DNA from: an uncultured Acidobacteriota bacterium
GTDB lineage: Bacteria; Acidobacteriota; Thermoanaerobaculia; UBA5066; Gp7-AA6
Length of the DNA stretch: 64,000 nucleotides
Direction of reading: 5' to 3'
Assembly (NCBI GenBank): GCA_963810205.1
Contig: CAWEMP010000018.1
Coordinates: forward strand, 169,001 to 233,000
Shown here in pieces: positions 1,557 through 39,731 of this stretch. Made by a program: the position numbers and the translations under genes. The notes under the pieces are model-generated. The model did not search any database. It had not been told where the DNA came from and saw only the letters and a program-made list of their open reading frames with translations. Position 1 is the stretch's first letter; each line of letters begins with the position of its first letter.

Positions 1557-3104
1557 ATGAAGAGAATGCTCGCGACCTGGCTCCTCGTCTGCGGTCTCGG
1601 CGCGACCGCGCTGCGCCCAGGAGAAGCCCGCGGAGAAGCGCCGCTCCGGACGCCGCGAAGAAGGAGCCGCCGAAGGCCGAGCAGTCGGTCACGCAGCACA
1701 CCGCCGTGATCGGCGGGGCGCCCGTCGCCTTCACGGCGACCGCCGGCACGCTCGTCGTGCAGAACGCCAAGGACGAGCCGTGGGCGAGCATGGGCTACGT
1801 CGCGTACGTCCGGAAGGACGCGGGCCCGGCCGCGCGGCGCCCGATCGCGTTCTGCTACAACGGCGGCCCCGGGCTCCTCGTCGATCTGGCTGCACATGGG
1901 CGCGCTCGGTCCGCGGCGCGTCGTCGTCGCGGACGCCGCCCCGACGCCGCCGCCGCCGTACCAGGTCGTCGACAACGCCTACAGCCTGCTCGACAAGGTC
2001 GACATCGTCCTGATCGATCCGGTCGGCACGGGAGTCAGCAAGCCGCGTCGGCGACTTCAAGAACCAGGACTTCTGGGGCGTCGATCCCGACATCGAGTCG
2101 ATCTCGCGGTTCATCAAGCAGTACGTCTCGGACAACGGCCGCTGGAACTCGCCGAAGTACCTGATCGGCGAGAGCTACGGCACGACGCGCTCGCCCGGCA
2201 TCGTCGACTGGCTGCAGAGCAAGGGCGGCATGTCGTTCAACGGCGTCGTGCTCATCTCGCTCGCGACGGACCTCGGCGCGATCTTCGCCTTGCCGGGCAA
2301 CGACCAGCCGTATCCGCTGATTCTCCCGAGCTACGCGGCGACGGCCTGGTACCACAAGGCGCTGCCGAATCCGCCGAAGGACCTCGAGCCCTGGCTGACG
2401 GAGGTCCGTCGCTTCGCCGCGGGCGACTACGCGGCGGCGCTCGCGGAGGGCGACCGGCTCTCCGACGAGCGTCGCGCCGCGGTCGTCGCAGAAGCTGCAC
2501 GAGTACACCGGGCTCTCGGAGGAGTACCTGCGCCTGGCCGACCTGCGCGTGTCGCGAGAGCGAGTTCACGCAGGAGCTCTTCCGGCAGAAGGGAATCACG
2601 ATCGGCCGGCTCGACTCGCGGTTCGTGGGCCCGACCTTCGACCCGCTCGCCAAGGAGACCGAGAACGACCCGCAGTCGAACTCGATCACCGGAGCGTACA
2701 CGGCCGCGTTTCTCGACTGGTACCACGAGGGATTGAAGTTCGGCGAGGGCAAGTCCTACGTCGTCACCGCCGACGCCTGGCGCACGTGGGACTTCAAGCA
2801 CGCGGTCCCCGGGCTGCCCTTCCCCGCGCCGACGCTGACCAACACGAACATCGACCTCGCGCGCGCGATGGCCTTCAATCCGAGCCTGCGCGTCCTGGTG
2901 CTGAACGGACAGTTCGACCTCGCGACGCCGTTCTTCGCGAGCGAGTACATGATGGCGCACGTCTCCCCGCAGAAGGACGTCAAGGCCCGCATCGAGATGA
3001 AGTACTACCCGGCGGGCCACATGATGTACGTCAACGAGGGCGCGCTCAAGGCGATGAAGGCCGACATGGCCGACTTCGTTTCGCGCACCGTCGCTTCGCG
3101 CTGA
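1557..3104 (+). pseudogene. peptidase S10-like serine carboxypeptidase, about five frameshifts
   Basis: ATG 1557 follows GAGAGGA and opens a signal peptide MKRMLATWLLVCGLGA. The protein has to be pieced from all three frames (ORFs 1706.., 1896..3104, 2230..2736). The pieces give CYNGGPG, LIDPVGTGVS, IGESYGTTR (Ser box) and YYPAGHMMY (His box) in S10 order. Frame changes lie near 1630, 1885, 2045, 2495 and 2555. Confidence 0.7.
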
Positions 3105-3190
3105 CTCGGGTTCTGCGCCCTCCGGGCGCACCGGCTTGCGGCGTCGCGGACGGCGCTCGACCGCAAGCCTGTCCCCTCGCGGCGCCAGTG
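3087..3190 (+). repeat. truncated copy R0 (5' domain only) of the kinase-leader structured repeat
   Basis: It starts ACCGTCGCT like the other copies. It retains hairpin 1 (GCGCCC-TCC-GGGCGC), hairpin 2 (GGCTTGCGG...CCGCAAGCC) and TCGCGGCGC, then diverges. The invariant 3' domain is missing. Its first 18 nt supply the last codons and the stop of the S10 peptidase gene. Confidence 0.7.

Positions 3191-8238: not shown

Positions 8239-8249
<11 letters not shown>
7788..8249 (+). CDS. DUF1772-type integral membrane protein
   Basis: Intact 153-aa ORF with four hydrophobic segments. The NIPIN motif context is typical of the DUF1772/anthrone-oxygenase-like family. Confidence 0.55.
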
Positions 8250-9489
<1,240 letters not shown>

Positions 9490-9566
9490 CGACCGTTGAA
9501 TCTACCAGATGCGCCCGTGCCCGGCCGCCTGGCGAAGCTCTATCTTGTATGCTCCCCGCAACTTGG

Positions 9567-9727
9567 ACCGTCGCTTGCGCTTACTCGGGACCTGCGCCCT
9601 TCGGGCGCACCGGCGAGCGACTCGCCCAAAGGGGCTCGATCGCTCGCCTGGTCCCTCGCGGCGCGCTCGCTCCCGCGGCGCGAACCTCCTCCCTCCCTTC
9701 GGTCGGGAGACTATTCGCGCCGCGAAC
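9567..9727 (+). repeat. kinase-leader structured repeat, copy R1
   Basis: Runs from ACCGTCGCT to TTCGCGCCGCGAAC. It has P1 GGGACC/GGTCCC, hairpin 1 GCGCCC-TTC-GGGCGC and hairpin 2 GGCGAGCGA/TCGCTCGCC. The 3' domain is CGCGGCGCGAA-(29 nt with CTCCC/GGGAG hairpin)-TTCGCGCCGCG. It lies 29 nt upstream of the K2 start. Confidence 0.85.
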
Positions 9728-9756
9728 GAAGTAGAGAGTGCCTCGAGGGGGAAGAC

Positions 9757-12447
9757 GTGAGTCTCGCCACCGGCACGCGCCTCGGCCCCTACGAGATCCT
9801 CGCGCCGATCGGCGCGGGAGGGATGGGGGAGGTCTACAGGGCGCGGGACGGGAAGCTGCAGCGGGACGTCGCGATCAAGGTGCTGCCGGAGCTCTTCGCC
9901 GCGGATGCCGAGCGGCTGGCGCGGTTTCAGCGCGAAGCGCAGGTGCTGGCGGCGCTGAACCATCCGCACATCGCGGCGATCTACGGCCTGGAGGAGTCCG
10001 GCGCGACGGCGGCGCTGGTGCTGGAACTCGTGCCGGGGGAGACGCTCGCGGAAAGGATCGCGTCGGGGCCGATCCCGGTGGAGGAGGCCATGGCCGTCGC
10101 GCATCAGATCTCCGACGCCCTCGAGGCCGCGCACGAGCGGGGCATCGTGCACCGCGACCTGAAGCCCGCCAACGTCAAGATCACGCCCGACGGGAAGGTC
10201 AAGGTACTGGACTTCGGGCTGGCCAAGGCGCTCTCGACCGACGGATCGTCGCCGGACGTGACGTCGTCGCCGACGATCACGGCCGCCGCGACGCAAGCGG
10301 GCGTCGTGATCGGAACCGCGGCGTACATGTCGCCCGAGCAGGCGCGGGGCAAGCCCGTCGACAAGCGCACCGACATCTGGGCTTTTGGAACAGTGCTCTA
10401 CGAGATGCTGACGGGCAGGCGCTGCTTCGAGGGCGACACGGTGTCGGACGTGCTTGCCTCCGTCCTGCGCCAGGACCCGGACTGGTCGGCTCTCCCCGCC
10501 GAGACACCGGCGAACGTGCGCCGGCTCCTTCGTCGGTGCCTGGAGCGGGACCGCAAGAACAGGCTGCGCGACATCGGGGACGCGTGGCTCGAGGGCCCCG
10601 CGGATGCACCGGCGGCAACGGGAGTCCGGCGCGGATTTCCGATCGCCTGGGCCGCGGCCGTGCTCCTCGCCCTGGCGGCTGGATTCGCCGTGGCCCGCTG
10701 GACCGGCCGGGCACCCGCCGCGACGACCCCCATCGCGACCCATTCCGTGGTCCCGCTGCCTCCCGGCACGCGGCTTTCCGGTTGGGCATCTCCGGTGCTC
10801 GCCCTCTCCCGCGACGGCCGCTCGCTGGCCTTCGTGGCCGAGAAGGATGGCGAGCCGCAGAGGCTCTGGGTGCACCGGCTCGACCTCGACGAGAGCCGCG
10901 TCGTCCCCGACAGCGATGCGGCCGAAGGGCCGTTTTTCTCTCCCGACGGTCAGTGGGTCGCCTTTGCCGTGAACGTTTCGCAAGTGGCGTCCGGCGGGAG
11001 GGCAGAGCTGAAGGGAGAGCTCAGGAAGTACTCGCTCTCCACGGGCCTGACGCAGACGGTCGCTCCCATTCCCGACTATCACGGAGGAAGCTGGGCCGAG
11101 GACGGCTCGATGCTCGTGGCGGCGTCGACGACCCAGGGTCTGTGGCGAATTGCTGCCGGCGGCGGCAAGCCCGACGTGTCGGCGGAGAGGGTGATCTGGC
11201 AGGGCCGCGAGGACCGGCTCCCATTGTCCTGGCCGCAGGCTCTCGCGGGAGGCGCGGCGCTCGTCACCTTTGACGGCCTGAGCCGTTGGGGAGGCGCCGC
11301 GATTCTCGACTTCCCGACGCGGACCCTGGAGAGGCTCGCCGGAGACACGTCGTTTTCGCGATACGCCGCGGACGGCCGCCTGCTGATGCTCCGGCGAGAT
11401 CGCTCGGTGCTCGCCGCTCCCTTCGACGCGCGGACGCACCGGATCACGGGGCCCGCGGTCGCCGTGCTGCGGGAGGTCGCCACGGGCGGGAACGGCGCCG
11501 GAGCACTCGCCGTCTCGGAGAACGGGACCCTGGTCTATGCGAGCGGTTACCTTCTTGGAAGCGGTCTGGAGCAGAGGCGGCTGGTCCGCCTGAGCGAGAG
11601 GGGGGACGTCGAGATCCTCCCGTTCGAGCCGGACGCCTTCGTCCGCCTTCCGAACGTGTCGCCGGACGGCCGGACTCTCCTGGCGTTGACTGCGGACGGG
11701 TCGGTGTTCCTCTACGATCTAGTGCGCGGCGTTCGCAGTCGGCTTCCGATCGGGAATCTGCAGGGCCACGGGTTCGTGGGGATCTGGTCGCCCGACGGCG
11801 AGAGCGTCACGTTCACCGTCTCGTCCGAGGGCGGGCAGGGGTGGAGCATCGTCCGACAAAAGGCGGATGGCAGCGGTCCGCCCGAAGAGATCGTCCCGAG
11901 CGGCGAGGAGAAAAACGCGCTCGCCTGGACGAGCGATGGCGGTTCCCTGATTTTCACTCAGTGGGGAGAGGAGCCGGCGCTCTGGATTGCGCCGGTCGCC
12001 GAGAAGGCCGCGCCGCGCAAGCTCGTCGAAGGCTTCGTCGGAACCGCGAGCATCTCTCCCGACGGGCACTGGTTGGCGTACGACCGTCAAGGGATCGAGG
12101 GCTGGGAGACGGTCGTCGAGAGGCTCCCCGCGCCGGGCCGCAAGGTGGCGATCGCCGCGGGAGGTAGGGCGCCTCGCTGGTCCCCCGACGGGCGCGCGAT
12201 CTACTTCCGGAGGGGCGACAGCCTTTTTCGCGTAAGGGTCACGCCGGGAGAGAAGCTCGAGCCGGACACCCCCGTGGAGCTTTTCCGGCTGGCGAACTGG
12301 CAGGGCTATGCCGTGGCTCCAGATGGGAAGAGCTTCTTTGGCATCGTGCAGGCCGCCGATTCCGGCATTGTGCGGGAGCTGCACCTGGTCACGAACTGGT
12401 TCTCGGAGCTCGAGCGCCTCGCGCCGGCGGCCGGGGCAAAGCCGTGA
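9757..12447 (+). CDS. Ser/Thr protein kinase with PD40/TolB-like beta-propeller ectodomain (K2, subfamily II)
   Basis: GTG 9757 follows GAGGGGGAAG. The start is fixed by similarity of [27 protein letters not shown] to paralog N-termini, because the track ORF 8122..12447 is merely open upstream. Motifs are VAIKVL, HRDLKPAN, DFGLAK and AYMSPEQ. A TM segment IAWAAAVLLALAAGFAVA is followed by many SPDG repeats. Intact. Confidence 0.9.
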   Translation: MSLATGTRLGPYEILAPIGAGGMGEVYRARDGKLQRDVAIKVLPELFAADAERLARFQREAQVLAALNHPHIAAIYGLEESGATAALVLELVPGETLAERIASGPIPVEEAMAVAHQISDALEAAHERGIVHRDLKPANVKITPDGKVKVLDFGLAKALSTDGSSPDVTSSPTITAAATQAGVVIGTAAYMSPEQARGKPVDKRTDIWAFGTVLYEMLTGRRCFEGDTVSDVLASVLRQDPDWSALPAETPANVRRLLRRCLERDRKNRLRDIGDAWLEGPADAPAATGVRRGFPIAWAAAVLLALAAGFAVARWTGRAPAATTPIATHSVVPLPPGTRLSGWASPVLALSRDGRSLAFVAEKDGEPQRLWVHRLDLDESRVVPDSDAAEGPFFSPDGQWVAFAVNVSQVASGGRAELKGELRKYSLSTGLTQTVAPIPDYHGGSWAEDGSMLVAASTTQGLWRIAAGGGKPDVSAERVIWQGREDRLPLSWPQALAGGAALVTFDGLSRWGGAAILDFPTRTLERLAGDTSFSRYAADGRLLMLRRDRSVLAAPFDARTHRITGPAVAVLREVATGGNGAGALAVSENGTLVYASGYLLGSGLEQRRLVRLSERGDVEILPFEPDAFVRLPNVSPDGRTLLALTADGSVFLYDLVRGVRSRLPIGNLQGHGFVGIWSPDGESVTFTVSSEGGQGWSIVRQKADGSGPPEEIVPSGEEKNALAWTSDGGSLIFTQWGEEPALWIAPVAEKAAPRKLVEGFVGTASISPDGHWLAYDRQGIEGWETVVERLPAPGRKVAIAAGGRAPRWSPDGRAIYFRRGDSLFRVRVTPGEKLEPDTPVELFRLANWQGYAVAPDGKSFFGIVQAADSGIVRELHLVTNWFSELERLAPAAGAKP

Positions 12448-12454
12448 GGAGTTG

Positions 12455-13792
12455 ATGAAGGAGATGGCGCGGACGCGTTTGGCCGCCGTGCTGCTGAGCG
12501 CCTGGGCCGGGATCGCATTGGCCGCCGACCCGGCCGTCACGATCCTCAAGGCCGCCCGACTGATCGATGGGCGCGGCGGCCGGCCGATCGCGCCCGCGAT
12601 GGTGCGGGTCGAAGGCGAGCGAATCGCCGAGGTCGGGCCCGCCCTCGCGATTCCGGCCGGCGCCCGCGTCATCGACCTCGGCGACGCGACGCTCCTGCCC
12701 GGCCTCATCGACCTCCACACGCACCTGACCGACAAGTTCGGCGTCCACTGGGAACAGGCCCTGACGACGACGACCCCCGGCGAGGCCGCGCTGTGGGGCG
12801 CGAACAACGCGCGCGACACCCTCATGGCCGGCTTCACCACGTGCCGCGACATGGGGCCGACCTGGCCCTACGTGGACGTCGCCCTGCGCAACGCGATCGA
12901 CGCGGGCGCGGTGCCCGGGCCGCGCCTCTTCGTGGCCGGCAACTACGTCTCCTCGACCGGCGGGGCCGGCGACGCGCGGCAGTTCTCGATCTACGTGGAC
13001 GTCCCGATCGTCCGGAACCTGGCCGACGGGCCGGAGGAAGTGACGAAGGCCGTGCGCACGAACTTCAAGAACGGCGCGGACTTCATCAAGATCCTCGCAA
13101 CCGGCGCGATCCTCTCGAAGGGCATCGCGCCGGACGCGCAGCAGTACTCGGACCTCGAGATCGCGGCGGCGGTCGAGGAGGCGAACCGCTGGGGACGGCA
13201 GGTCGCGGCCCACGCGCACGGGGCGAAGGGCATCAAGAGCGCGATCCGCGCAGGCGTGCGCACGATCGACCACGGCTCGTATCTCGACGACGAGGCGGTC
13301 GCGCTGCTGAAGGCGGGCGCGCGGAGGACGTTCTACGTTCCGACGCTGTACACGAGCGAGGTGATTCTCGAGAACGAGGGCGCGACGATACCGGAATCCG
13401 AGGTCCAGAGAATGCGCCAGATCCGCGACATCAAGGACGCGGCCTTCCGGCGGGCACTGGCCGCGGGCCTGCCGATCGGATTCGCCACCGACTCGGGCGT
13501 GATCCCTCACGGCAGGAACGCCCGAGAGTTCGCTCTCCGCACCGGTCTCGGCGAGACGCCACTCTCGGCGATCGTCTCCGCGACGAGCCTGAACGCGGAG
13601 ATCATGGGCTGGTCGGACCGCGTGGGGACCGTCGAGAAGGGGAAGCTCGCAGACCTCGTTGCGGTGTCCGGCAATCCCCTCTCGGACGTCACCGAGCTCG
13701 AGCGCGTCCGGTTCGTGATGAAAGGCGGCGTCGTCTGGCGGGACGATCTGTCAGGCGCGTGCCCGGATGCCGGCAGGGGAGCCGGACCTTGA
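12455..13792 (+). CDS. secreted metal-dependent amidohydrolase (PF01979-type)
   Basis: ATG 12455 follows GAGGAG and opens the signal peptide MKEMARTRLAAVLLSAWAGIALA. LPGLIDLHTHL (HxH), AAHAHGAKGI, TIDHGSYL and FATDSGV follow the order of the amidohydrolase metal ligands. Intact. Confidence 0.8.
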   Translation: MKEMARTRLAAVLLSAWAGIALAADPAVTILKAARLIDGRGGRPIAPAMVRVEGERIAEVGPALAIPAGARVIDLGDATLLPGLIDLHTHLTDKFGVHWEQALTTTTPGEAALWGANNARDTLMAGFTTCRDMGPTWPYVDVALRNAIDAGAVPGPRLFVAGNYVSSTGGAGDARQFSIYVDVPIVRNLADGPEEVTKAVRTNFKNGADFIKILATGAILSKGIAPDAQQYSDLEIAAAVEEANRWGRQVAAHAHGAKGIKSAIRAGVRTIDHGSYLDDEAVALLKAGARRTFYVPTLYTSEVILENEGATIPESEVQRMRQIRDIKDAAFRRALAAGLPIGFATDSGVIPHGRNAREFALRTGLGETPLSAIVSATSLNAEIMGWSDRVGTVEKGKLADLVAVSGNPLSDVTELERVRFVMKGGVVWRDDLSGACPDAGRGAGP

Positions 13793-13861
13793 GCCTCTCC
13801 GCCGGTACGAAGCTCGGTCCCTACGAGATCCTGGCTCCGATCGGCGCGGGCGGGATGGGGG
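13789..13861 (+). pseudogene. orphan 5' stub of a kinase gene (first 24 codons, [24 protein letters not shown])
   Basis: The TTG at 13789 overlaps the amidohydrolase stop (CTTGA). The coding sequence stops being kinase-like exactly where repeat R2 begins. Nucleotides 13804-13862 are identical to 14061-14119 of K3. Confidence 0.7.
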
Positions 13862-14015
13862 ACCGTCGCTTCGGTGACTCGGAGGTCTGGCTTCGCCACC
13901 GGCGCGCGGCTCGCAGACGGCGCTCGACCGCGCGCCTGACCTCCTCGCGGCGGTCCGCTCCCGCGGCGCGAACCTCCTCCCTCCCTTCGGTCGGGAGACT
14001 ATTCGCGCCGCGAAC
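13862..14015 (+). repeat. kinase-leader structured repeat, copy R2
   Basis: P1 GGAGGTC/GACCTCC, hairpin 1 GGC-TTC-GCC, hairpin 2 GGCGCGCGG/CCGCGCGCC, and the invariant 3' domain. It lies 30 nt upstream of the K3 ATG. Confidence 0.85.
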
Positions 14016-14045
14016 AACTGGGAGATTGTCTTTGAGAGGTCTCCG

Positions 14046-16706
14046 ATGAGTCTGGCGGCGGGTACGAAGCTCGGTCCCTACGAGATCCTGGCTCCGATCG
14101 GCGCGGGCGGGATGGGGGAGGTGTACCGGGCGAAGGACACGCGGCTGGAGCGGACGGTGGCGATCAAAGTGCTGCCGCAACATCTTTCTTCATCCCCCGA
14201 GGTCCGCCAGCGGTTCGAGCGCGAGGCGAAGACGATCTCGCAGCTCTCGCATCCCCACATCTGCGCGCTCTACGACGTCGGTCGCGAAGGGGAGATCGAA
14301 TACCTGGTGATGGAGCTTCTCGAGGGCGAGACGCTCTCGGATCGCCTCGCGAAGGGGCCGCTGCCGCTCGAGCAGACGCTGCGCTCCGGAGTGGAGATCG
14401 CGGACGCCCTGGACAAGGCGCACCGTCAGGGAATCGTGCACCGGGACCTGAAGCCCGGCAACGTCATGCTGACGCGGTCGGGCGTGAAGCTCCTGGACTT
14501 CGGACTGGCCAAGGCGATGGCGCCGTCTACGCAGCAGTCGAGCCTGACGGCCCTGCCCACGCAGCAGGGCCTGACGCAGGAAGGCACCATCCTCGGGACG
14601 TTCCAGTACATGGCGCCCGAGCAGCTCGAGGGCAGGGACGCGGACGCGCGGACGGACATCTTCGCGTTCGGAGCGGTCCTGTACGAGATGGTCACGGGGC
14701 AGAAGGCGTTCTCGGGTTCGAGCCAGGCCTCGCTCATCTCGTCGATCCTCCGCGACGAGCCGAAGCCCATCTCGCAGGTCCACCCGACCTCTCCCCAGGC
14801 GCTCGATCGAATCGTGCGGACGTGCCTCGCCAAGGATCCCGAGGAGCGGTGGCAGTCGGCGAGCGACCTGAAGCGGGAGCTCCGGTGGATCGGCGAGAGC
14901 TCGCAGTCCGGCGCGGCGGCCGCGACGGGGGTCGTCCCCCGTTCGCGGGCGTCGCGCGCCTGGCTCCCGTGGGGGCTCGCGCTGGCCTCCCTCGCAGCCG
15001 CCCTCGCCCTGGCCTTCGTTCTCCACCGCCGAAGCGCCGTTCGCCCGTCCGCGGTCCATTCCTTCCTTCTGCCGCCGGAGAAGACCGCTTTCGAGCTGAC
15101 CGGCGACGAGTCCGCGCCACCCGCGCTCTCGCCCGACGGCGCGCGGGTCGTCTTCGGCGCGTCGGGAAAGCTCTGGGTCCAGTCGGTGTCGACCGGCGTG
15201 ACGTCGGCGCTGCCGTTGACCGAGCACGCGCTGTTTCCGTTCTGGTCGCCCGACAGCCGGTCGATCGGCTTCTTCGCCGGCGGGAAACTGAAGACGATCG
15301 AAGCCGCCGGCGGCCCGGTGCAGGTCCTGTGCGATGCGCCGACGCCCCGCGGGGGGAGCTGGGGCCGGGCGGGCGTCATCGTTTTCGCTCCGGACTTCCG
15401 GGGCGGGCTTTCGCGCATTCCGGCGGGTGGCGGCGCTCCCGCGGCCGTGACGACGCTCGATGCCGCGCGGCACACGACGCATCGCTGGCCCTGGTTCCTT
15501 CCGGACGGCAAGCGGTTCCTCTTCCTCGCGGCCAACCACGCCAACTCGCGGTCGCAGGACTCGGGGATTTACGTCGGATCGCTCGACGCGGGGCCGGCGC
15601 GCCGCCTGATGGCGTCCTACGGGAGTGTTCAAACGGTGCCGGGCTGGGTGCTGTCGGTTCGCGACAACAGCCTCATCACGACGCCCTTCGACGAGGACCG
15701 CGCCGCCGTCTCGCCGCCGGGCGTCAGCGTCGCCAACGACGTGAACTTCGACTCCGGCGTGTGGCGGGGCGTCTTCACGGTTTCCCGGACGGGACTCCTC
15801 GCGTACCAGGTAGCGCGCGAGGGAACGGGAGGGCAGCTCACGTGGCTCGACATGTCAGGCCATGCGGCCGGAACGATCGGAGAGCGCAACGAGTCGTATG
15901 CCCTGCGGTTGTCGCCCGACGGCCGCCGGGCGTCCGTGATCCAGGGCGATCCGAACAACGACATCTGGATATACGAGCTCGAGCGCGGTGTTCGGACCCG
16001 TCTCACCACCGACGCGGGTGTCCTCCCTTCTCCGATCTGGTCTCCCGACGGTTCCGAGATCCTCTTCGTCAGCGGTGTGGCGATCGAGATGAAGCCCGAG
16101 TACGTCGTGGCGAGGCTTCCGTCGTTCGGAGCCGGCGAAAAGAAGGTCGTCCTGCGCTCGCCCGCCCGCATGGAAACGACGGACTGGTCGCGGGACGGAA
16201 AGTACCTGTTGTTCGACCGCGGCAACATCGGCGCCACCGACATCTGGGCGGTGGCGCTCGCTCAGCCGGACAAGCCATTTCCCCTCGTCCAGACTCCGTT
16301 CCTCGACACCACCGGAATGTTTTCTCCCGACGGGCGATGGGTCGCGTACGTATCGATGCAGACCGGCTCCTGGGAGGTTTTCGTCACGGCGTTTCCCGCG
16401 GGCGGCGCGCCGTACCAGGTCTCCGGCTCGGGCGGCCGCCTGCCGCAGTGGGGCCCGGACGGCAAGACCCTCTACTTCATCGCGGAAAACGAGCTCATGG
16501 CCGCGGAGGTCGACGGATCCGGACCCCGGTTCGAGATTCGAGCGCCGAAGCCCGTGTTCCCCCTTCCCCTTTTCATCGGCCCCCGGTTGGCGAGCGCGTA
16601 CGCCATCACGCCCGACGGAAAACGGCTGCTCGCCAACGCTGCCGGCGACGTGTCCGCGCCGCGCGTCGCGCTCGTCGCGAACTGGACCTCGGATCTGGCC
16701 AGGTGA
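14046..16706 (+). CDS. Ser/Thr protein kinase with PD40/TolB-like beta-propeller ectodomain (K3, subfamily I)
   Basis: Intact 886-aa ORF with [29 protein letters not shown] and QYMAPEQ. The TM segment is AWLPWGLALASLAAALALAFVL. It has repeated SPDG/PD40 motifs and the C-terminus NWTSDLAR. Confidence 0.92.
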   Translation: MSLAAGTKLGPYEILAPIGAGGMGEVYRAKDTRLERTVAIKVLPQHLSSSPEVRQRFEREAKTISQLSHPHICALYDVGREGEIEYLVMELLEGETLSDRLAKGPLPLEQTLRSGVEIADALDKAHRQGIVHRDLKPGNVMLTRSGVKLLDFGLAKAMAPSTQQSSLTALPTQQGLTQEGTILGTFQYMAPEQLEGRDADARTDIFAFGAVLYEMVTGQKAFSGSSQASLISSILRDEPKPISQVHPTSPQALDRIVRTCLAKDPEERWQSASDLKRELRWIGESSQSGAAAATGVVPRSRASRAWLPWGLALASLAAALALAFVLHRRSAVRPSAVHSFLLPPEKTAFELTGDESAPPALSPDGARVVFGASGKLWVQSVSTGVTSALPLTEHALFPFWSPDSRSIGFFAGGKLKTIEAAGGPVQVLCDAPTPRGGSWGRAGVIVFAPDFRGGLSRIPAGGGAPAAVTTLDAARHTTHRWPWFLPDGKRFLFLAANHANSRSQDSGIYVGSLDAGPARRLMASYGSVQTVPGWVLSVRDNSLITTPFDEDRAAVSPPGVSVANDVNFDSGVWRGVFTVSRTGLLAYQVAREGTGGQLTWLDMSGHAAGTIGERNESYALRLSPDGRRASVIQGDPNNDIWIYELERGVRTRLTTDAGVLPSPIWSPDGSEILFVSGVAIEMKPEYVVARLPSFGAGEKKVVLRSPARMETTDWSRDGKYLLFDRGNIGATDIWAVALAQPDKPFPLVQTPFLDTTGMFSPDGRWVAYVSMQTGSWEVFVTAFPAGGAPYQVSGSGGRLPQWGPDGKTLYFIAENELMAAEVDGSGPRFEIRAPKPVFPLPLFIGPRLASAYAITPDGKRLLANAAGDVSAPRVALVANWTSDLAR

Positions 16707-21947: not shown

Positions 21948-24596
21948 TTGAGTCTTTCGGCCGGGACACGCCTCGGGCCCTACGAGATCGCTGCGCCGAT
22001 CGGCGCCGGCGGCATGGGCGAGGTCTACCGGGCGAAGGACACGCGTCTGGACCGTCAGGTCGCGGTGAAGGTGCTGTCCTCGCACCTCTCGGCGAGCGAG
22101 GAGGTCCGGCAGCGGTTCGAGCGCGAAGCCAAGACGATCTCGCAGTTCTCGCACCCGCATATCTGCTCGCTCTACGACGTCGGGCGGGAGGGCGAGACCG
22201 ACTACCTCGTGATGGAGCTCCTCGAGGGCGAGAGCCTCGCGGACCGGTTGGGCAAGGGCGCGCTTCCCACGGAGCAGGTCCTGCGCTTCGGGATCCAGAT
22301 CGCGGACGCGCTCGACAAGGCGCACCGGCAGGGGATCGTGCACCGGGACCTCAAGCCCGGCAACGTCATGCTCACGAAGACGGGCGTGAAGCTGCTCGAC
22401 TTCGGCCTCGCCAAGCCCTTGACCGCAGCCGGCGCTCGGCCCGTCTCCGGTGCCTCGGTCCTCGCGACGGAAGCGCAGGTCAGCCAGCCGCTGACGGAGC
22501 GGGGAACCGTGCTCGGCACGTTCCAGTACATGGCGCCCGAGCAGCTCGAGGGCGGAGAGGCGGACGGCCGCTCCGACATCTTCGCGTTCGGCGCCGTGCT
22601 CTACGAGATGGCGACGGGCAAGAAGGCCTTCACAGGCAAGAGCCAGGCGTCCTTGATCGGCTCGATCCTGCGGGACGATCCGCCCTCGATCACCGAAGCG
22701 GCGCCGATGATCCCGCCGGCCCTGAATCGCGTCGTCAAGACCTGTCTCGCCAAGGACCCCGAGGACCGCTTCCAGACCGCGCACGACGCCAAGCTCCAGC
22801 TCGAGTGGATCGCCGAGGGCGGCTCGCAGGTTGGCCTGCCGGCACCCGTCGCCGCGCGGCGCAAGAGCCGCGAGAAGCTCGCCTGGGCGATCGCGGCCGT
22901 CGCCATCGTCGCAGCGGCCCTCGCCGCCTACGGTTACCTGCGCCGCGCGCCAAAGCCGCTCCGGCTGACGCGCTTCGAGATCTCGACTCCGGAAGAGATC
23001 GTGGCGCTGGACGCGCCGCGCGTCTCGCCGGACGGGCGCTACGTGGCGTTCAACGCGACGGATTCCTCCGGAAAGACGCGGATCTGGCTGCGTGCTCTGA
23101 ATGCCCTTGCGCCGCAGCCGCTCCCCGGCACCGAGGGGACGACCCGGCCCTTCTGGTCCCCGGATTCCCGGTTTCTCGGCTTCTTCGCCGAAGGCAAGCT
23201 GAAGAAGATCGACGTGACCGGAGGGCCGCCGCAAAACATCTGCGACGCGCCGACCGGCTCCGACGGTTCGTGGAGCCCGGAGGGCGTGATCCTCTACGAC
23301 GGCCGCGGGACGGATCCGATCAACCGCGTTTCGGCCGCGGGAGGCGTTCCCGTCGCGGTGGTCAAGCCCGATCCGGCGAAAAAGATCAGCCAGGTCGGCT
23401 GGCCGGAGTTCCTGCCCGACGGCAAGCACTACTTCTTCATGGTGATCGCGACCCGGGCCGAGGACAGCGCCTACCGCATCGGATCCCTCGATTCGAACGA
23501 GTCGAAGCCGTTCGCTCCCGCCCAGACCCTGCTCACGTACGCTCCCCCCGGCTATCTCCTCTTCGTCCGGGATCGGACGCTCGTCGCCCAGCCCTTCGAC
23601 GCAAAGGCCCAGAAGACGACGGGCGAGCCCGTGCCGCTGGCCGAGAAGATCGGTGTCGACAGCGTCGGGCTCGCTCGCTTCTCGGTCTCGCGCGAGGGCA
23701 CGCTCGCCTATCGGACCGGGGAGTCCGGGACCCGCCTGCTCTGGGTGGACCGCAACGGCAAGGAGCTCGAGGCGGCGGGCGAAGCGGGCGACTCGCGAGA
23801 GCCGGCGCTGTCGCCGCGGGGCGACCGCCTCGCTTTCGACCTGACCGACGCCCGGGCCAACAACGCCGACGTCTGGGTGCGCGATCTCGCGCGCGGCGTG
23901 AACTCGCGGCTGACGTTCGGCCCGGTCGACGAGTTCGCCCCGACCTGGTCGCCCGACGGAAGCCGGATCGCCTACGCCGTGGACAGCAAGGGAATCTTCG
24001 AGAAGGCCGGCGACGGAACCGGCGAAGAGAAGGAGCTGCTGAAGGCGGAGGAGCTGATGTTCCCGACCGACTGGTCCCGGGACGGCCGGTACATCGCTTT
24101 CACGCGGCAGGGCAAAGACACGGGCCTGGACATCTGGGTGATGCCGACCTCCGGCGACGGGAAGCCGGTACCGATTCTCAAGACGCCCTTCAACGAAAAC
24201 GGCACCATCTTCTCTCCCGACGGCCGGTTCATCGTGTACGTGTCGACCGAATCCGGCCGCAACGAGATCTACGCGCGCAGCTTCCCCGGCCAGGGCGGCA
24301 AGTGGCAGGTCTCGGCCGGCGGAGGCACGGACCCGCATTTCAGCGCCGACGGCCGGGAGATCTTCTACCGCGCGCCGGACCAGAAGGTCATGGCCGTGGA
24401 CGTGAAGGCGGGCGCAGGGTTCGAGACCGGCGTTCCCAAGGCGCTGTTCCTCGGACGATTCCAGCCGGCGACGGCCCGCAACCGGTTCGTGCCCGCGCTC
24501 GATGGCCAGCGTTTCCTGATCGTCGCCCCGTTGGGGCGCGACGCCATGGCGCCGACGACGGTGGTCCTCAACTGGTTCGCCGGACTCGGGAAGTGA
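21948..24596 (+). CDS. Ser/Thr protein kinase with PD40/TolB-like beta-propeller ectodomain (K5, subfamily I)
   Basis: TTG start and an intact 882 aa. It has the full kinase motif set, the TM segment LAWAIAAVAIVAAALAAYGYL, PD40 repeats and the C-terminus NWFAGLGK. It is closely related along its whole length to K6. Confidence 0.92.
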   Translation: MSLSAGTRLGPYEIAAPIGAGGMGEVYRAKDTRLDRQVAVKVLSSHLSASEEVRQRFEREAKTISQFSHPHICSLYDVGREGETDYLVMELLEGESLADRLGKGALPTEQVLRFGIQIADALDKAHRQGIVHRDLKPGNVMLTKTGVKLLDFGLAKPLTAAGARPVSGASVLATEAQVSQPLTERGTVLGTFQYMAPEQLEGGEADGRSDIFAFGAVLYEMATGKKAFTGKSQASLIGSILRDDPPSITEAAPMIPPALNRVVKTCLAKDPEDRFQTAHDAKLQLEWIAEGGSQVGLPAPVAARRKSREKLAWAIAAVAIVAAALAAYGYLRRAPKPLRLTRFEISTPEEIVALDAPRVSPDGRYVAFNATDSSGKTRIWLRALNALAPQPLPGTEGTTRPFWSPDSRFLGFFAEGKLKKIDVTGGPPQNICDAPTGSDGSWSPEGVILYDGRGTDPINRVSAAGGVPVAVVKPDPAKKISQVGWPEFLPDGKHYFFMVIATRAEDSAYRIGSLDSNESKPFAPAQTLLTYAPPGYLLFVRDRTLVAQPFDAKAQKTTGEPVPLAEKIGVDSVGLARFSVSREGTLAYRTGESGTRLLWVDRNGKELEAAGEAGDSREPALSPRGDRLAFDLTDARANNADVWVRDLARGVNSRLTFGPVDEFAPTWSPDGSRIAYAVDSKGIFEKAGDGTGEEKELLKAEELMFPTDWSRDGRYIAFTRQGKDTGLDIWVMPTSGDGKPVPILKTPFNENGTIFSPDGRFIVYVSTESGRNEIYARSFPGQGGKWQVSAGGGTDPHFSADGREIFYRAPDQKVMAVDVKAGAGFETGVPKALFLGRFQPATARNRFVPALDGQRFLIVAPLGRDAMAPTTVVLNWFAGLGK

Positions 24597-24759
24597 GCCG
24601 TCGCTCGCGCTTACTCGGGGCCTGCGCCCTTCGGGCGCTCCGGCCTGCGGCTCGCGCGGATGCGCGCTCGACCGCAAGCCTGGCCCCTCGCGGCGCGCTC
24701 GCTCCCGCGGCGCGAACCTCCTCCCTCCCTTCGGTCGGGAGACAATCCGCGCCGCGAAC
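24597..24759 (+). repeat. kinase-leader structured repeat, copy R3
   Basis: It begins immediately after the K5 TGA. P1 is GGGGCC/GGCCCC, hairpin 1 is GCGCCC-TTC-GGGCGC and hairpin 2 is GGCCTGCGG/CCGCAAGCC (one C-A mismatch). The 3' domain has one change (TCCGCGCCGCG). It lies 31 nt upstream of the K6 ATG. Confidence 0.85.
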
Positions 24760-24790
24760 GCAACGGAGAGCGCTGTTGAAAGGTCTTGAA

Positions 24791-29825: not shown

Positions 29826-29904
29826 ATGACGCTCGCCGCCGGCTCGAGGCTCGGTCCCTACGAGATCCTCGCGCCGATCGGAGCGGGCGGGATGGGGGAG
29901 GTTT
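29826..29904 (+). pseudogene. orphan 5' stub of a kinase gene ([26 protein letters not shown]..)
   Basis: ATG 29826 is followed by 26 kinase-like codons that end exactly at the ACCGTCGCT start of repeat R4. The frame then runs into the repeat and terminates there. Confidence 0.65.
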
Positions 29905-30064
29905 ACCGTCGCTCTCGCTCGCTCGCGGACCTGGCCCTTCGGCACCGGCGTTCGGCTCGTCCGGATGCGGACTCGCCGTCCGCCTGATCCGCTCGCGTCG
30001 CTCCCGCTCCCGCGGCGCGAACCTCCTCCCTCCCTCCGGTCGGGAGACTATTCGCGCCGCGGAC
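29905..30064 (+). repeat. kinase-leader structured repeat, copy R4 (most diverged)
   Basis: P1 GGACC/GATCC (one mismatch), hairpin 1 GCC-CTTC-GGC, and hairpin 2 GGCGTTCGG/CCGTCCGCC (two mismatches) with inner GTCCG-GATG-CGGAC. The 3' domain has a loop variant (TCCGGTC) and ends GGAC. It lies 39 nt upstream of the K7 GTG. Confidence 0.8.
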
Positions 30065-30103
30065 GTCAGGGAGGGTGCCGCTGAGGGCAGGGGAGAAGGC
30101 GCC

Positions 30104-32760: not shown

Positions 32761-35451
32761 ATGACGCTCGCGGCCGGGACGAAGCTCGGGCCTTACGAGA
32801 TCCTGGCGCCGATCGGCGCGGGCGGGATGGGCGAGGTCTACAAGGCGCGAGACGAGCGTCTCGAGCGCACGGTCGCGGTCAAGGTCCTGCCGCCGCATCT
32901 CTCGTCGAGCCCGGAGCTGCGGCAGCGATTCGAGCGCGAGGCGAAGACCATCTCGCAGATCTCGCACCCGCACATCTGCGCGCTCTACGACGTCAACCGC
33001 GAGGGCGAGACCGAGTACCTCGTCATGGAGTACCTCGAGGGCGAGACGCTGGCGGATCGCCTGAGCAAGGGCCCGCTGCCGGCCGAGCAGCTCCTGCGGT
33101 CCGGGATCGAGATCGCCGACGCGCTCGACAAGGCGCACCGGCAGGGCATCGTGCACCGGGACCTGAAGCCCGGCAACGTGATGCTGACGAAATCCGGGGT
33201 CAAGCTGCTCGACTTCGGCCTGGCGAAGTTCCAGGCGGCGGGCCGCGACGTTTCGTCCGGCGTCTCGCGCCTCGCGACGGAGATGCAGGCGAGCCAGCCG
33301 CTGACCGAGCGCGGCACCGTGCTCGGCACCTTCCAGTACATGGCGCCCGAGCAGCTCGAGGGCAAGGACGCCGACGCCCGCAGCGACCTCTTCGCCTTCG
33401 GCGCCGTGCTCTACGAGATGGCGACGGGCAAGAAGGCGTTCTCCGGCTCGAGCCAGGCCTCGCTCATCGGGGCGATCCTGCGCGACGACCCGCCGGCGAT
33501 CTCGGAGATCTCGCCGATGATCCCGCCGGCCTTGAACCGCGTCGTCAAGACCTGCCTCGCCAAGGACCCGGAGGACCGCTTCCAGACGGCACACGACGCG
33601 AAGCTCCAGCTCCAGTGGATCGCCGAGGGCGGCTCGCAGGCGGGGCTGCCCGCGCCGGTCGTCGCGCGCCGCAAGAACCGGGAGAAGCTCGCCTGGGCCG
33701 TCGCGGCCGCGGCGATCGTCGCGGCCGGACTCGCGACGTTCGGTTACCTTCGCCGGGCGCCGCGCGCGGCGACGCGCGTCGGCGCGTTCGTGCTGCCGGC
33801 CGAGAAGTCCGAGCTCCAGTTGTCCGAGGCGGGCTGCGGCTCGCTCACGGTGTCGCCGGACGGCCGCCTCATCACGTTCTCTGCGAAGGATGCCGACGGC
33901 AAGACCCTGCTGTGGCTCCGGCCCACGGGCGAGCTCGCGGCCAGGCCGATTCCCGGGACGCATGGGGCGACCTTTCCGTTCTGGTCGCCCGACAGCCGGT
34001 TTCTCGCGTTCTTCGCCGACGGCAAGCTCCAGAAGGTGGACATCTCCGGCGCGCCGCCGCTTCCGGTGTGCGACGCGCCGGCGGGCCGCAGCGGCGCCTG
34101 GAATCGGGATGGCGTCATTCTCTTCTCGCCGGACACGACGACGGGCCTCGTTCGGGTCCCCGCGGCGGGGGGCACGCCGAAGCCGGCGACGACGCTCGAT
34201 GGCGCTCGCGTCGAGACGACGCACCGGTGGGCGACGTTTCTGCCGGATGGGCGCCACTTCCTCTACATGGCGGGCGCGCATTCGGCCGGCACGAAGAGCG
34301 ACTCGAACGCGATCTACCTCGGGGCCCTCGACTCGAACGAGAAGACCCTCCTCCTGCAGGCCCGCTCGAACGTCGTCTATGCCTCGGGCTACCTGCTCTA
34401 CGTGCGCGAGCGGATCCTGCTCGCGCAGCGCTTCGACCCGGGCGCCCGGCGTCTCGTCGGGGAAGCGGTCCCGGTGGCCGAGGGCGTGCAGTACGACCCG
34501 GCGTTTTTCCGGGGCGTGTTCGCGGCCTCGGAGGACGGCGTCCTCGTGTACGCCCTCGGCGCGGCAGGCTCGGCCGCGACCCGGCTCACGTGGATGGATC
34601 GCGCGGGAAAGCCGCTGGGCGAGCCCCTGGGGGAGCCCGCGGAGTACCAGGGTCTTTCGCTTTCGGCGGACGGAAAGCGCATCGCCGCCTGGATCAACGA
34701 TCCGACGACGGGGGCCGGATCGATCTGGCTCGTCGACGGCCGCGGGGTCCGCACCCGTTTCACGTTCGGCGACCTCTCGGAGTCGCCCGTGTGGTCGCGG
34801 GACGGGAGCCGCATCGCGTTCCAGAGGCTGGACAAGAAGGGGGTCGATCAGATTCGCGTGAAGGCCTTGAGCGGCTCCGGCCAGGAAGAGCTCGTGTTTC
34901 AAGGAAAGCCGGCGACCCCGCTCGACTGGTCTCCGGACGGCGCCTACCTCGCGGTGCAGGTGCACCAGCGCAGCGGCGTCACGACGGGTGAAGACATCTG
35001 GATGGTCCCGCTCTCCGGCGACCGGAAGCCGTTCCCGTTCCTCGCGGGAGAGTTCAACGAGACCGGCGCCTCCTTCTCGCCGGACGGCAAGTGGGTGAGT
35101 TTCTCCTCGAACGAGTCGGGGCGGGACGAGCTCTACGTCGTTCCGTTTCCGGGGCCGGGCGGCAAGTACCAGATCTCCGCGGGCGGCTCCCAGGGAGGAG
35201 CCTTCTTCAAGGGCGGCCGGGAGATCCTCTACGGAACTCCGGATAACGACGTGGTTTCCGTGGACGTCAAGGCCAGCCCGTCGGGGCTCGAGGTCGGCCC
35301 GCCGAAGAAGCTCTTCAAGGTCCCTTCGGCTACTGCCGTCGCGATCACGCCCGACGGCGAGAGATTCCTCCTCGCCGTGCTCCCGCAGGGGACCGCGGCG
35401 CCGCGCGTGGCGCTCGTGACCAACTGGACGGCGGGGCTCGAGAAGAAGTAA
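32761..35451 (+). CDS. Ser/Thr protein kinase with PD40/TolB-like beta-propeller ectodomain (K8, subfamily I)
   Basis: ATG 32761 ([31 protein letters not shown]) and intact to 35451. The TM segment is [21 protein letters not shown], followed by PD40 repeats and the C-terminus NWTAGLEKK. Confidence 0.92.
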
Positions 35452-35465
35452 AGACGGCTCAGCAA

Positions 35466-35538
35466 ATGACGCTCGCGGCCGGAACGAAGCTCGGCCCCTA
35501 CGAGATCCTGTCGCCGCTGGGCGCGGGCGGGATGGGGG
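35466..35538 (+). pseudogene. orphan 5' stub of a kinase gene ([24 protein letters not shown])
   Basis: ATG 35466 lies 14 nt after the K8 stop. Its 24 kinase codons end at GGGATGGGGG/ACCGTCGCT, the same junction as at 13861/13862. It differs from the K9 5' end at about nine positions and resembles K11/K12-type 5' ends ([11 protein letters not shown]). Confidence 0.7.
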
Positions 35539-35692
35539 ACCGTCGCTCCGCTGACTCGGAGGTCTGGCTTCGCCACCGGCGCGCGGCTCGCGGACGGCGC
35601 TCGACCGCACGCCTGACCTCCTCGCTGCGCTTCGCTCCCGCGGCGCGAACCTCCTCCCTCCCTTCGGTCGGGAGACTATTCGCGCCGCGAAC
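35539..35692 (+). repeat. kinase-leader structured repeat, copy R5
   Basis: Near-identical to R2. P1 is GGAGGTC/GACCTCC and hairpin 2 is GGCGCGCGG/CCGCACGCC, with the invariant 3' domain. It lies 54 nt upstream of the K9 ATG. Confidence 0.85.
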
Positions 35693-35746
35693 GATAGAGA
35701 GAGTGCCATGAAATGAAATCGCCGGGCTTGTTGGAGGTCGGCTGAG

Positions 35747-39536: not shown

Positions 39537-39696
39537 ACCGTCGCTGCGCTTCGCTCGGGGTCTGCGCCTGCGGCGCACCGGCGAGCGGCTCGCCGGGATG
39601 CCGGCTCGACCGCTCGCCTGATCCCTCGCGGCGCTTCGCTCCCGCGGCGCGAACCTCCTCCCTCCCTTCGGTCGGGAGACTATTCGCGCCGCGAAC
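39537..39696 (+). repeat. kinase-leader structured repeat, copy R6
   Basis: It begins directly after the upstream TGA. P1 is GGGGTC/GATCCC (contains a G-U pair), hairpin 1 is GCGCC-TGC-GGCGC and hairpin 2 is GGCGAGCGG/CCGCTCGCC, with the invariant 3' domain. It lies 35 nt upstream of the K10 GTG. Confidence 0.85.
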
Positions 39697-39731
39697 GAAA
39701 GCGAGATGGCCGCGGAAGTGGGTCGGCTGAC

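Follow-up and report, generated by a model that had tools for sequence, protein, structure and literature searches.

A large structured repeat that begins at the very ends of genes occurs in bacteria of the class Thermoanaerobaculia (phylum Acidobacteriota). We examined this element in a 64,000-nucleotide stretch of DNA from an uncultured Acidobacteriota bacterium (contig CAWEMP010000018.1, positions 169,001 to 233,000; hereafter 'the window', with coordinates counted from its first nucleotide), where copies of the element lie among protein kinase genes. The element is classified as a CGTC-headed, gene-3′-end-anchored repeat that resembles repetitive extragenic palindromic (REP) sequences. Its most notable properties are the near-absolute abutment of its 5′ end, or head, to stop codons and transfer RNA (tRNA) ends, and the existence of gene fragments that are cut exactly at this head. 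We judge it moderately probable that the element is a clade-wide, large, modular and non-autonomous palindromic repeat of the kind represented by REPs, bacterial interspersed mosaic elements (BIMEs) and MITEs (miniature inverted-repeat transposable elements), which is moved at the DNA level and serves as a transcript-end structure when resident.

Architecture of the element

The element is composed of an unpaired CGTC head, an optional 5′ module that is absent, consists of one hairpin or forms a three-way junction, a near-invariant 3′ hairpin and a purine tail. A consensus fold computed with RNAalifold from 77 distinct long copies contains 42 base pairs in six helices, including the three-way junction. 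The predicted helices are P1, hairpin 1, a long hairpin 2 that carries an invariant bulge and an internal loop, and a 3′ hairpin formed by an outer stem of 11 bp and an inner stem of 5-7 bp. The nucleotides C, G, T and C at positions 2-5 are invariant in 77/77 long copies and are unpaired in the consensus; the 5′ end was located by a CGTC-containing pattern, and the head is degenerate in 9 of 131 copies. An unpaired arm of 17-19 nt follows the head before the foot of the first hairpin, and the right end lies ~8-21 nt 3′ of the last hairpin. The head consensus is CCGTCGC(C/T)T.CGCT and the tail consensus is GA(G/A)CG...GGG..AG.GCCGC. For the focal copy, whose parts are listed in Table 1, the predicted minimum free energy (MFE) is -106 kcal/mol (z = -4.0).

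Six full window copies (142-180 bits) and one truncated copy were identified, all on the + strand, by a covariance model built from 77 family members and run with filters off, which found no further copies on either strand of the window. The 3′ domain pattern CGCGGCGCGAA-N29-TTCGCGCCGCG independently yields six + strand sites (9674, 13962, 24706, 30011, 35639 and 39643), where shuffled sequences are expected to give 0. These searches establish as real the structured repeat family that had been proposed in an earlier note made by reading the same DNA. Inspection with flanks and in alignment bears out that all window copies share the 5′ head (A/G)CCGTCGCT. Two other details needed amendment. The 3′ end TTCGCGCCGCG(A/G)AC, which the note ascribed to complete copies, is present in 5 of 6 full copies, and the copy at 24597 instead has TCCGCGCCGCGAAC. 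The variants listed for P1 and for hairpins 1 and 2 all exist in the sequence, but the GGCTTGCGG/CCGCAAGCC stem is perfect only in the truncated copy, and the copy at 24597 has one C·A mismatch there. Moreover, the note described a repeat of ~160 nt followed by a separate purine block. This block, which follows the 3′ stem, is conserved clade-wide and is therefore the element's own tail, giving a unit length of ~185 nt (9568-9751 in the focal copy).

The element has no recognized relative among catalogued RNAs, as the note had supposed. Rfam models produced 0 matches at the gathering threshold over the whole window, and at E ≤ 10 only noise (E = 4.6-6.9) on positions 9500-9800. No description of the element was found in the literature under its motif strings or under acidobacterial repeats, and no canonical promoter or terminator was found at the focal copy (9400-9800). 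The alignment shows no U-tract after the 3′ stem, which continues with GA(A/G)CG... and no T-runs; because of this, the element is not a canonical intrinsic terminator.

Other signs of a known element type were also sought. By eye on the alignment, the tail consensus contains no inverted counterpart of the head that would form a terminal inverted repeat. Sequences of 2-4 nt beside the head are found again after the tail at a frequency that does not exceed that of permuted controls, which gives no indication of a target-site duplication. A coding or readthrough extension, or an open reading frame (ORF) like those of mycobacterial interspersed repetitive units (MIRUs), was rejected, since no frame is consistently open across 85 long copies (each is open in ~46-61%) and insertions and deletions do not come in threes. 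Also rejected was a helix between linker and tail suggested by single-sequence MFE folding: it has 13.8 pairs versus 12.8 with shuffled tails, and thus is only compositional. Separately, the C-rich loop at 9685-9697, present in every canonical copy, is a homopyrimidine tract whose complement GGGAGGGAGGAGG is prone to G-quadruplex or triplex formation and also resembles a Shine-Dalgarno sequence.

A family found across Thermoanaerobaculia

When species-representative genomes were scanned for exact matches to the 3′ loop CCTCCTCCCTCCCNNCGGNCGGGAG, at least 114 loci (given L-numbers as labels here) were recovered from ~40 metagenome-assembled genomes, on both contig strands; all counts given for copies outside the window were taken among the matches listed. 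Among these, all belong to Acidobacteriota, and to Thermoanaerobaculia where classified. No match was found in viral contigs.

Between 125 and 131 copies were inspected for form. Long forms like those in the window are accompanied by short forms, in which the head and a CGCT-rich arm of 45-57 nt run straight into the 3′ domain, and by a one-hairpin form (L075). Copies also occur in head-to-tail tandems (three copies in L079; also L013) and in tail-to-tail inverted pairs between convergent genes (L006, L011, L023, L087, L092 and L112). When copies were ascertained by the hairpin 2 motif alone, the canonical 3′ loop was present in 89 of 117 matches. Six of the 28 matches without it are chance matches in coding DNA, and the remaining variants carry a compensatory inner stem, in which CTCCC/GGGAG becomes CTCCGC/GCGGAG or CTCCCC/GGGGAG, and retain the TCCTCC...GGAGA(C/T)T frame. 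Orthologous sites differ between species, with a short form in L027 versus a long form in L011, and the site that holds the element in L028 has an unrelated spacer in L111.

The head is anchored at the ends of upstream genes

Coding strands on each side of the element were assigned from six-frame codon scores over 210 nt, using a model derived from long ORFs with G+C content at third codon positions (GC3) > 0.85 and GC1 > GC2. The upstream flank is co-oriented with the element in 47 copies (81%) and antisense in 11 of 58, and the downstream flank is co-oriented in 36 copies and convergent in 20 of 56. A co-oriented upstream ORF could be assigned with confidence for 48 copies. Its in-frame stop codon directly precedes the N of N-CGTCGC in 31 of them and is 1 nt away in 13; in 47, the distance is at most 2 nt. 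All three stop codons participate (TAA 21, TAG 15, TGA 11), compared with a background of TGA 335, TAG 207 and TAA 91 in the same sequences, and TAA is thus enriched approximately threefold. Five additional copies follow a co-oriented tRNA gene identified by ARAGORN (tRNA-Val in L005 and L035; tRNA-Gln in L037, L021 and L070), with 0-4 nt between its 3′ end and the head, and three others abut T-runs. On the tail side, 6-198 nt separate the element from the stop codon of a convergent gene, and a co-oriented gene can start at the earliest 7-200 nt away. Given such broad distances, the close fit at the head is specific and does not simply result from short spacers.

Window copies provide further examples. 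The stop codon TGA 24594-24596 of an upstream kinase (21948-24596) ends 1 nt before the head of the copy at 24598, and TGA 39534-39536 of an AstE/AspA-like gene (38766-39536) ends 1 nt before that of the copy at 39538. The ORF upstream of the truncated copy at 3088 extends into the head by 17 nt, as far as its stop codon, TGA 3102-3104. Stop codons that abut the element are native: FtsX-type proteins keep intact ...EALRYE* ends, and the gene at the element-free site in L111 ends one residue later than its ortholog in L028. Position -1 relative to the element is a purine in 88 of 112 copies, and position -3 is T in 48 of 112. At 73 of 110 loci, and at 40 of the 53 with |skew| > 0.02, the G-rich strand is the element's top strand, as expected for elements that use the lagging-strand template, but this bias is confounded with gene orientation.

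Such precise placement might instead have a functional origin. It is, in our judgement, distinctly unlikely that the element is an unrecognized transcript-end module placed by function and not by transposition, either a structured RNA or a single-stranded DNA (ssDNA) or RNA enzyme target that begins at the last base of the upstream unit. If this is true, the terminating ribosome or the tRNA 3′-processing machinery would melt or cleave the CGUC head, and the C-rich hairpin, which resembles an anti-Shine-Dalgarno sequence, would switch state to couple upstream termination to message fate or downstream initiation. A CGTC-specific mobilizing enzyme that truly targets gene 3′ ends would be equally new.

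Covariation and the absence of a wobble signature

Base-paired positions of the element exhibit extensive covariation. Across 77 copies and 42 pairs, 97.6% of cells are paired, double compensatory changes occur in 22 of the 42 pairs, and 287 cells have changed on both sides. For example, one pair in hairpin 2 appears as CG in 25 copies, UA in 20, AU in 19 and GC in 9. The covariation score is 0.266, versus 0.088 in column shuffles (0/500 reach the observed value) and 0.02-0.06 when partners are slid. The score lies far above both controls, and therefore the pairing is real and the double compensatory changes reported in the earlier note are upheld.

Watson-Crick pairs occupy 96.8% of cells, and of the 3234 cells only 19 are G·U and 30 are A·C; one-sided changes from G-C to G-U number ~17. 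An A·C combination is a G·U pair on the opposite strand, and because G·U is no commoner than A·C, the stems lack the wobble signature of one transcribed strand. Rather, they act as strict palindromes that are symmetrical on both strands. Between the two kinds of folded strand that the note had envisaged, these counts speak against an RNA leader, and an ssDNA intermediate fits better.

The same results bear on the possibility that the element is a host-selected structured RNA. This would be a functional 3′ untranslated region (3′ UTR) or intercistronic module of ancient spread that starts at the terminating ribosome or the tRNA processing site, where a conserved partner would recognize the C-rich internal loop or hairpin and the three-way junction to control decay, processing or coupling. 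We consider this reading, the chief alternative to the one that we favour, possible, although rather doubtful. Covarying stems, the very stable fold, co-orientation with the upstream gene in 81% of copies and a start located exactly at a stop codon or tRNA end are all compatible with a host RNA. However, typical RNA families do not show so few one-sided G-U changes relative to double changes, or G·U pairs no more abundant than A·C. Furthermore, there is no Rfam relative, shuffled tails pair with the linker about as well as the real ones do, 11 of 58 copies run antisense to the gene upstream, and the element can do without its 5′ module, given that short forms exist and that short and long forms occupy one orthologous site.

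Apparent kinase specificity is a local feature of the window

Pfam assigns the window genes downstream of the element to proteins with a Pkinase domain and a PD40 beta-propeller; other neighbours are ispG on the - strand, an amidohydrolase, the AstE/AspA-like enzyme and a P450. A co-oriented tandem array (4558-52901) comprises no fewer than 12 Pkinase+PD40 paralogs, and element-free kinase junctions in it overlap stop and start codons by 4 nt (GTGA, e.g. 16703-16706). Kinases begin 3′ of the six full copies at 9757, 14046, 24791, 30104, 35747 and 39732, and these coordinates match the spacing of 29-54 nt given in the earlier note. The focal copy must lie within the 5′ transcribed or promoter region of its kinase because the upstream gene, ispG, is divergent, a location that would also suit a host RNA.

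An element so positioned could be a kinase-dedicated cis-regulatory 5′ leader, similar to a riboswitch or RNA thermometer, whose CCUCC-rich loop masks the kinase ribosome-binding site. The spacing in the window agrees with such a leader, as does the complementarity, read from the sequence, between the C-rich loop and Shine-Dalgarno sequences. Kinases are also over-represented downstream of the element (12 of 35 kinase N-termini in the loci have an element upstream), and one subfamily keeps its spacer to the kinase start across genomes (L004, L009, L084 and L086). But the clade-wide context largely refutes this reading, which retains scarcely any probability. A kinase N-terminus was found within 330 nt downstream in only 12 of ~113 outside-window copies (~11%), and ~89% have other downstream neighbours; in 20 of 56 copies the downstream gene is convergent. 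At least six window kinases have no element. The invariant landmark is the upstream stop codon (47/48) or tRNA 3′ end, whereas the distance to a downstream start is broad; variant 3′ domains place the CUCC motif inside the inner stem, where it would not be exposed; and the wobble signature is missing. Thus, the note's statement that the element lies 'always just upstream of kinase paralogs' does not extend beyond the window, copies without kinase association are the rule in other genomes, an outcome that the note itself had named as refuting, and the leader function is not supported. The window looks kinase-specific only because it contains a co-oriented tandem kinase array.

Two side observations concern this array. 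The kinases starting at ~4558, 30104, 35747, 39732, 42406 and 45096 are not single ORFs, as exemplified by an extra T in CCCTTACGAG near 39765, and such broken frames are either pseudogenes or long-read assembly indel errors. In addition, cumulative GC skew climbs almost monotonically across the window (1-64000, from 0 to 0.55), which implies that the whole window resides on one replichore with a G-rich + strand; nearly all large genes and every element copy are on this strand.

Heads joined to truncated genes and truncated elements

In three window copies (13863, 29906 and 35540) the first base directly adjoins an orphan kinase 5′ fragment of 74-80 nt, an arrangement that the earlier note missed. 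Two breakpoints are represented in the window, ...GGGGGA| and ...GAGGTTTA|. The fragment at 13789 overlaps the stop codon of the amidohydrolase gene (12452-13792), and that at 35466 is placed as a third tandem gene would be. Only the 13789 fragment is closest to its downstream kinase (67/72); the other two match other paralogs as well or better, and the fragment at 35466 is closest to the kinases at 32762, 35748 and 45096 rather than to the downstream one alone. A duplicative insertion carrying a kinase 5′ end, equivalent to a long target-site duplication, was rejected because only the 13789 fragment closely resembles its downstream kinase. Like junctions exist elsewhere (L108; L040, L077, L086 and L109), and L052 provides a third breakpoint, ...CCCTACGA|.

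Table 1. Positions of the focal element's parts, window copies, adjoining genes and fragments, and junctions to broken copies
Feature	Position or locus	Strand	Remarks
Focal copy, head CCGTCGC	9568-9574	+	5′ arm to 9586
Focal copy, P1	9587-9592/9650-9655	+	
Focal copy, hairpin 1	9594-9608	+	
Focal copy, hairpin 2	9612-9648	+	apical GCCC-AAAG-GGGC 9624-9635
Focal copy, pyrimidine linker	9656-9673	+	
Focal copy, 3′ domain	9674-9724	+	outer 11-bp stem 9674-9684/9714-9724, inner CTCCC/GGGAG hairpin
Focal copy, C-rich CCTCCTCCCTCCC	9685-9697	+	within 3′ domain
Focal copy, purine tail	9725-9742(-9751)	+	
Truncated copy	3088-3190	+	60 bits; head, P1, hairpins 1 and 2 and linker kept; 3′ domain missing
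ispG	8239-9489	-	divergent neighbour of focal copy
Full copy (focal)	9568-9751	+	180 bits; between divergent ispG and kinase start 9757
Full copy, GGAGGTC/GACCTCC subfamily	13863-14039	+	160 bits; head joined directly to kinase 5′ fragment
Full copy	24598-24783	+	167 bits; next kinase start 24791
Full copy	29906-30088	+	142 bits; head joined to kinase 5′ fragment ending ..GAGGTTTA
Full copy	35540-35716	+	174 bits; subfamily and breakpoint as in 13863 copy
Full copy	39538-39720	+	174 bits; kinase start 39732
Orphan kinase 5′ fragment	13789-13862	+	TTG start through ..GAGGMG codons; ends GGGGGA at CCGTCGC junction
Orphan kinase 5′ fragment	29826-29905	+	ATG to GGMGEV(Y) codons; second, different breakpoint
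Orphan kinase 5′ fragment	35466-35539	+	14 nt after stop of kinase 32761-35451
Broken-copy junction	L107		...GCGGCGCGTACCTGA|CCGTCGC
Broken-copy junction	L075		...GGCTCCTCCCTG|CCGTCGCC
Broken-copy junction	L111		...CTCCTCCCTA|CCGTCGC
Broken-copy junction	L073		break in inner loop (..CCGTCG..), resembles head

Heads are likewise joined exactly to other copies of the element that are broken within their own 3′ domain (L107, L075, L111 and L073; Table 1). Short direct duplications of the head (CCGTCGCTA|CCGTCGCT.. and TAGCCGTCGCCT|CCGTCGCC), seen in L058 (1600-1620), L067 (~1540) and L073, are consistent with repeated cutting and joining at this point. When paralogous filled and empty sites are compared (L082 or L030 versus L052), the element lies between the stop codon of a GTGA junction and a re-created start codon. 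A GAA(G/A)TGA repeat that flanks the copies at 24597 and in L082 was rejected as a target-site duplication, and is better explained as a relic of the kinase-kinase GTGA junction.

These joins to truncated genes and copies, along with the tandem arrays, are signatures of DNA rearrangement and count against a host RNA. They could, however, be produced by a folded single-strand recombination site similar to integron attC, which would form the 5′ boundary of mobile cassettes that a recombinase joins at the CGTC head. Strict Watson-Crick stems with invariant extrahelical or loop bases agree with such a site, as do exact junctions to heterogeneous upstream partners, the single orientation of window copies within a gene array, and the break of the first L073 copy in an inner loop that resembles the head. 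Nevertheless, this reading is very unlikely. No integrase or recombinase gene was seen next to the arrays among the neighbours examined, and the alignment shows no R′′/R′ core sites (RYYYAAC/GTTRRRY) at the ends. Copies are scattered singly over many contigs and not placed one per gene in an array, and many lie tail to tail between convergent genes.

Relationship to known repeat classes

The closest described class is the CGTC-tagged REP superfamily. Its members have been reported from Proteobacteria, Chlorobi, Bacteroidetes, Spirochaetes and Thermotogae (Di Nocera, De Gregorio and Rocco 2013, BMC Genomics 14:522; PMC3733652), and are single stem-loops of 20-40 bp with 8-9 bp stems that start with A-T pairs, loops of 4-5 nt and a CCA tail (PMC3733652). 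CGTC and GTAG REPs are mainly found a short way downstream of ORFs, where the flanking genes are unidirectional or convergent, and they can supply or touch the stop codon; no dedicated transposase has been found for CGTC REPs (PMC3733652). REP stems are cited as having frequent G-T pairs, and roles in mRNA stabilization and termination have been proposed for REPs (PMC3733652). The element described here shares with CGTC REPs an unpaired CGTC at one end of a G+C-rich palindrome, a high-copy intergenic distribution mainly 3′ of ORFs between unidirectional or convergent genes, and the formation of inverted dimers; for neither has a dedicated transposase been found. Unlike these REPs, it is ~185 nt long (approximately five times longer) and branched, with five to six helices, an unpaired arm of 17-19 nt after the head, a modular 5′ part and an invariant 51-nt 3′ hairpin. 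It also resides in Acidobacteriota, and G·U pairs are rare.

Likeness to integron attC sites and Vibrio cholerae repeats includes a folded single strand whose structure is kept while its sequence varies, invariant unpaired bases, and a location directly after ORFs in one orientation within an array. However, the element lacks R′′/L′′-L′/R′ core sites, has no integrase among the neighbours examined, and is dispersed, also occurring after tRNAs and between convergent genes. MIRUs are reportedly intercistronic repeats of a G+C-rich mycobacterial genome that are oriented with the operon and touch flanking stop and start codons with their ends, and whose small ORFs couple translation. Placement between cistrons, orientation with the operon and ends at flanking codons are common to both, but the element has no conserved frame.

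GTAG REPs, REPINs and BIMEs are mobilized by REP-associated tyrosine transposases (RAYTs), which are Y1 transposases like those of IS200/IS605. Similarities to these repeats include a hairpin with an unpaired terminal tag, strand specificity, the lack of terminal inverted repeats and target-site duplications, positions at gene 3′ ends that touch or supply a stop codon, and composite arrangements. Differences are the CGTC tag, the larger and branched fold, the prevalence of single-orientation singletons over inverted doublets, and the lack of any RAYT homologue in 0.9 Mb around 120 copies. Palindrome-associated transposable elements (PATEs) derived from IS200/IS605 have subterminal hairpins near both ends, lack terminal inverted repeats and target-site duplications, and insert 3′ of a fixed tetra- or pentanucleotide at the left end. 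The element parallels these in its end hairpins, in the absence of inverted repeats and duplications, in the distances of its ends from the hairpins (~17-19 nt left, ~8-21 nt right) and in its bias for the G-rich strand (confounded with gene orientation), but it shows no more than a purine or T-R-R bias in place of a fixed 4-5 nt target at the left end, no cognate TnpA/TnpB was found, and short forms lack the left-end hairpin.

Pneumococcal BOX (boxA-B-C), enterobacterial ERIC, Neisseria Correia and Rickettsia RPE repeats are modular sequences of 100-200 nt with compensatory stem changes and with stable co-transcribed folds that can affect how neighbouring genes are expressed, and in all these respects resemble the element. 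Correia, ERIC and other MITEs end in terminal inverted repeats and in most cases have a target-site duplication, of TA or another sequence, whereas the element shows neither. To our knowledge, regular abutment to stop codons and tRNA ends at 0-2 nt has been reported for none of these four families.

Other repeats associated with the element

Several smaller sequences recur within or beside copies of the element. In 5 of 122 copies (loci L043 (~1440-1500), L065, L100 and L108), an unrelated repeat of ~57 nt (GAACGCCGTGCTTCGCAC(A/G)GCGTTCCCTACTGC.GGGGGTC.GCCTTCGGTGGTCGGG) is inserted at one spot, between GGGAGA(C/G)TAT and the outer stem's 3′ strand; it appears to be a small mobile element that targets the ACTAT bulge. 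GTAG-headed REP-like hairpins (GTAGGGGCGG...CCGCCCC) are located ~40-60 nt past the tail in L002, L022, L031 and L034, so that classical REPs and a RAYT are probably present in these genomes as well. Four regular-expression matches that resembled GTAG REPs in the window were rejected as the antisense of kinase LGPYE codons. Finally, a recurrent hairpin CCCTCTCCCC-N-GGGGAGAGGG, often followed by TTGGGGTGAGGGG, resides 3′ of the tail within 160 nt downstream of 12 of 122 copies (loci L001, L018, L029, L080, L083, L088, L094, L099, L103, L107 and L111), and may be a further repeat family or a terminator.

A proposed mobile repeat that would erode its upstream neighbour

In the explanation that we favour, the repeat would be copied and rearranged at the DNA level by a strand-specific enzyme, either of the HUH/Y1 type (RAYT or IS200/IS605-like) or its functional like, that reads the hairpins and head in ssDNA. 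The head junctions and the absence of a target-site duplication and of an inverted counterpart fit strand-specific, hairpin-recognizing mobilization such as that of REPs and IS200/IS605 derivatives, and also fit end-mediated adjacent deletions. Events at the head end would include insertion 3′ of purine-ending or A/T-rich sites as well as deletions of adjacent DNA, and both would be tolerated only up to the first indispensable base, one in a stop codon, in the CCA end of a tRNA or in the T-run of a terminator. If the upstream gene is dispensable, such as a redundant kinase paralog, a deletion could enter it and leave a 5′ kinase fragment. This ratchet at the head end would account for abutment to stop codons, tRNAs and T-runs, for kinase erosion, for truncated upstream copies and for the lack of target-site duplications.

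An element that abuts a stop codon is necessarily co-transcribed with the upstream gene. We assume, as proposed for REPs, that a resident copy acts as a very stable G+C-rich 3′ UTR or intercistronic structure, which probably serves as a barrier to 3′ exonucleases or as an insulator between cistrons. The pre-kinase position of the window copies would then reflect the co-oriented tandem array and the duplication of element-plus-kinase units.

Several results weigh against mobilization of this kind, and some of them are points in favour of a host RNA. Loops and bulges are invariant while stems covary, and ~80% of copies picked by their 5′ domain alone have an identical 3′ loop, in a family that spans ~40 species; this pattern is equally compatible with an RNA under host selection or with a binding site for a protein. 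Different species retain copies at orthologous sites, and in conservation two of three such pairs exceed the flanking coding DNA (95% versus 62% and 88%; 98% versus 76% and 78%). A tblastn search with E. coli RayT of ~0.9 Mb of loci (120 copies) and the window gave no match, and there is no transposase-like gene beside any copy among the neighbouring ORFs examined. We recovered no strictly orthologous site that is cleanly empty and preserves the exact footprint of an excision or insertion. No fixed tetranucleotide target is seen, in that all three kinds of stop codon are used with only a purine or T-R-R bias, and the preference for the G-rich strand (66-75%) is confounded with gene orientation. 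Moreover, the adjacent-deletion ratchet is something that we infer and have not observed.

Candidates for an autonomous parent or for accompanying mobile genes were evaluated and rejected. Copies in which no head can be recognized within 136 nt all just have degenerate heads; the gene enclosed by a convergent pair in L066 encodes a VOC family protein and not a transposase; and two small - strand ORFs beside the truncated window copy correspond to DUF2092 and DUF6515.

Implications

The clade-wide distribution of the element corrects a tempting but wrong inference, that of a kinase riboregulator, and brings to light a structured repeat, hitherto undescribed and present in high copy number, that marks the 3′ ends of genes across an acidobacterial class dominated by uncultured members. 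In annotation, the element can be used to flag stop codons, operon junctions and gene remnants; if it is not recognized, it will seed false calls of noncoding RNAs and riboswitches. With it, CGTC-headed palindromic repeats also gain a new phylum and a modular architecture of much greater size. The abutment of its head, together with gene fragments cut exactly at this head, offers a handle on how such repeats move or erode their neighbours, and on the remodelling of paralog arrays.

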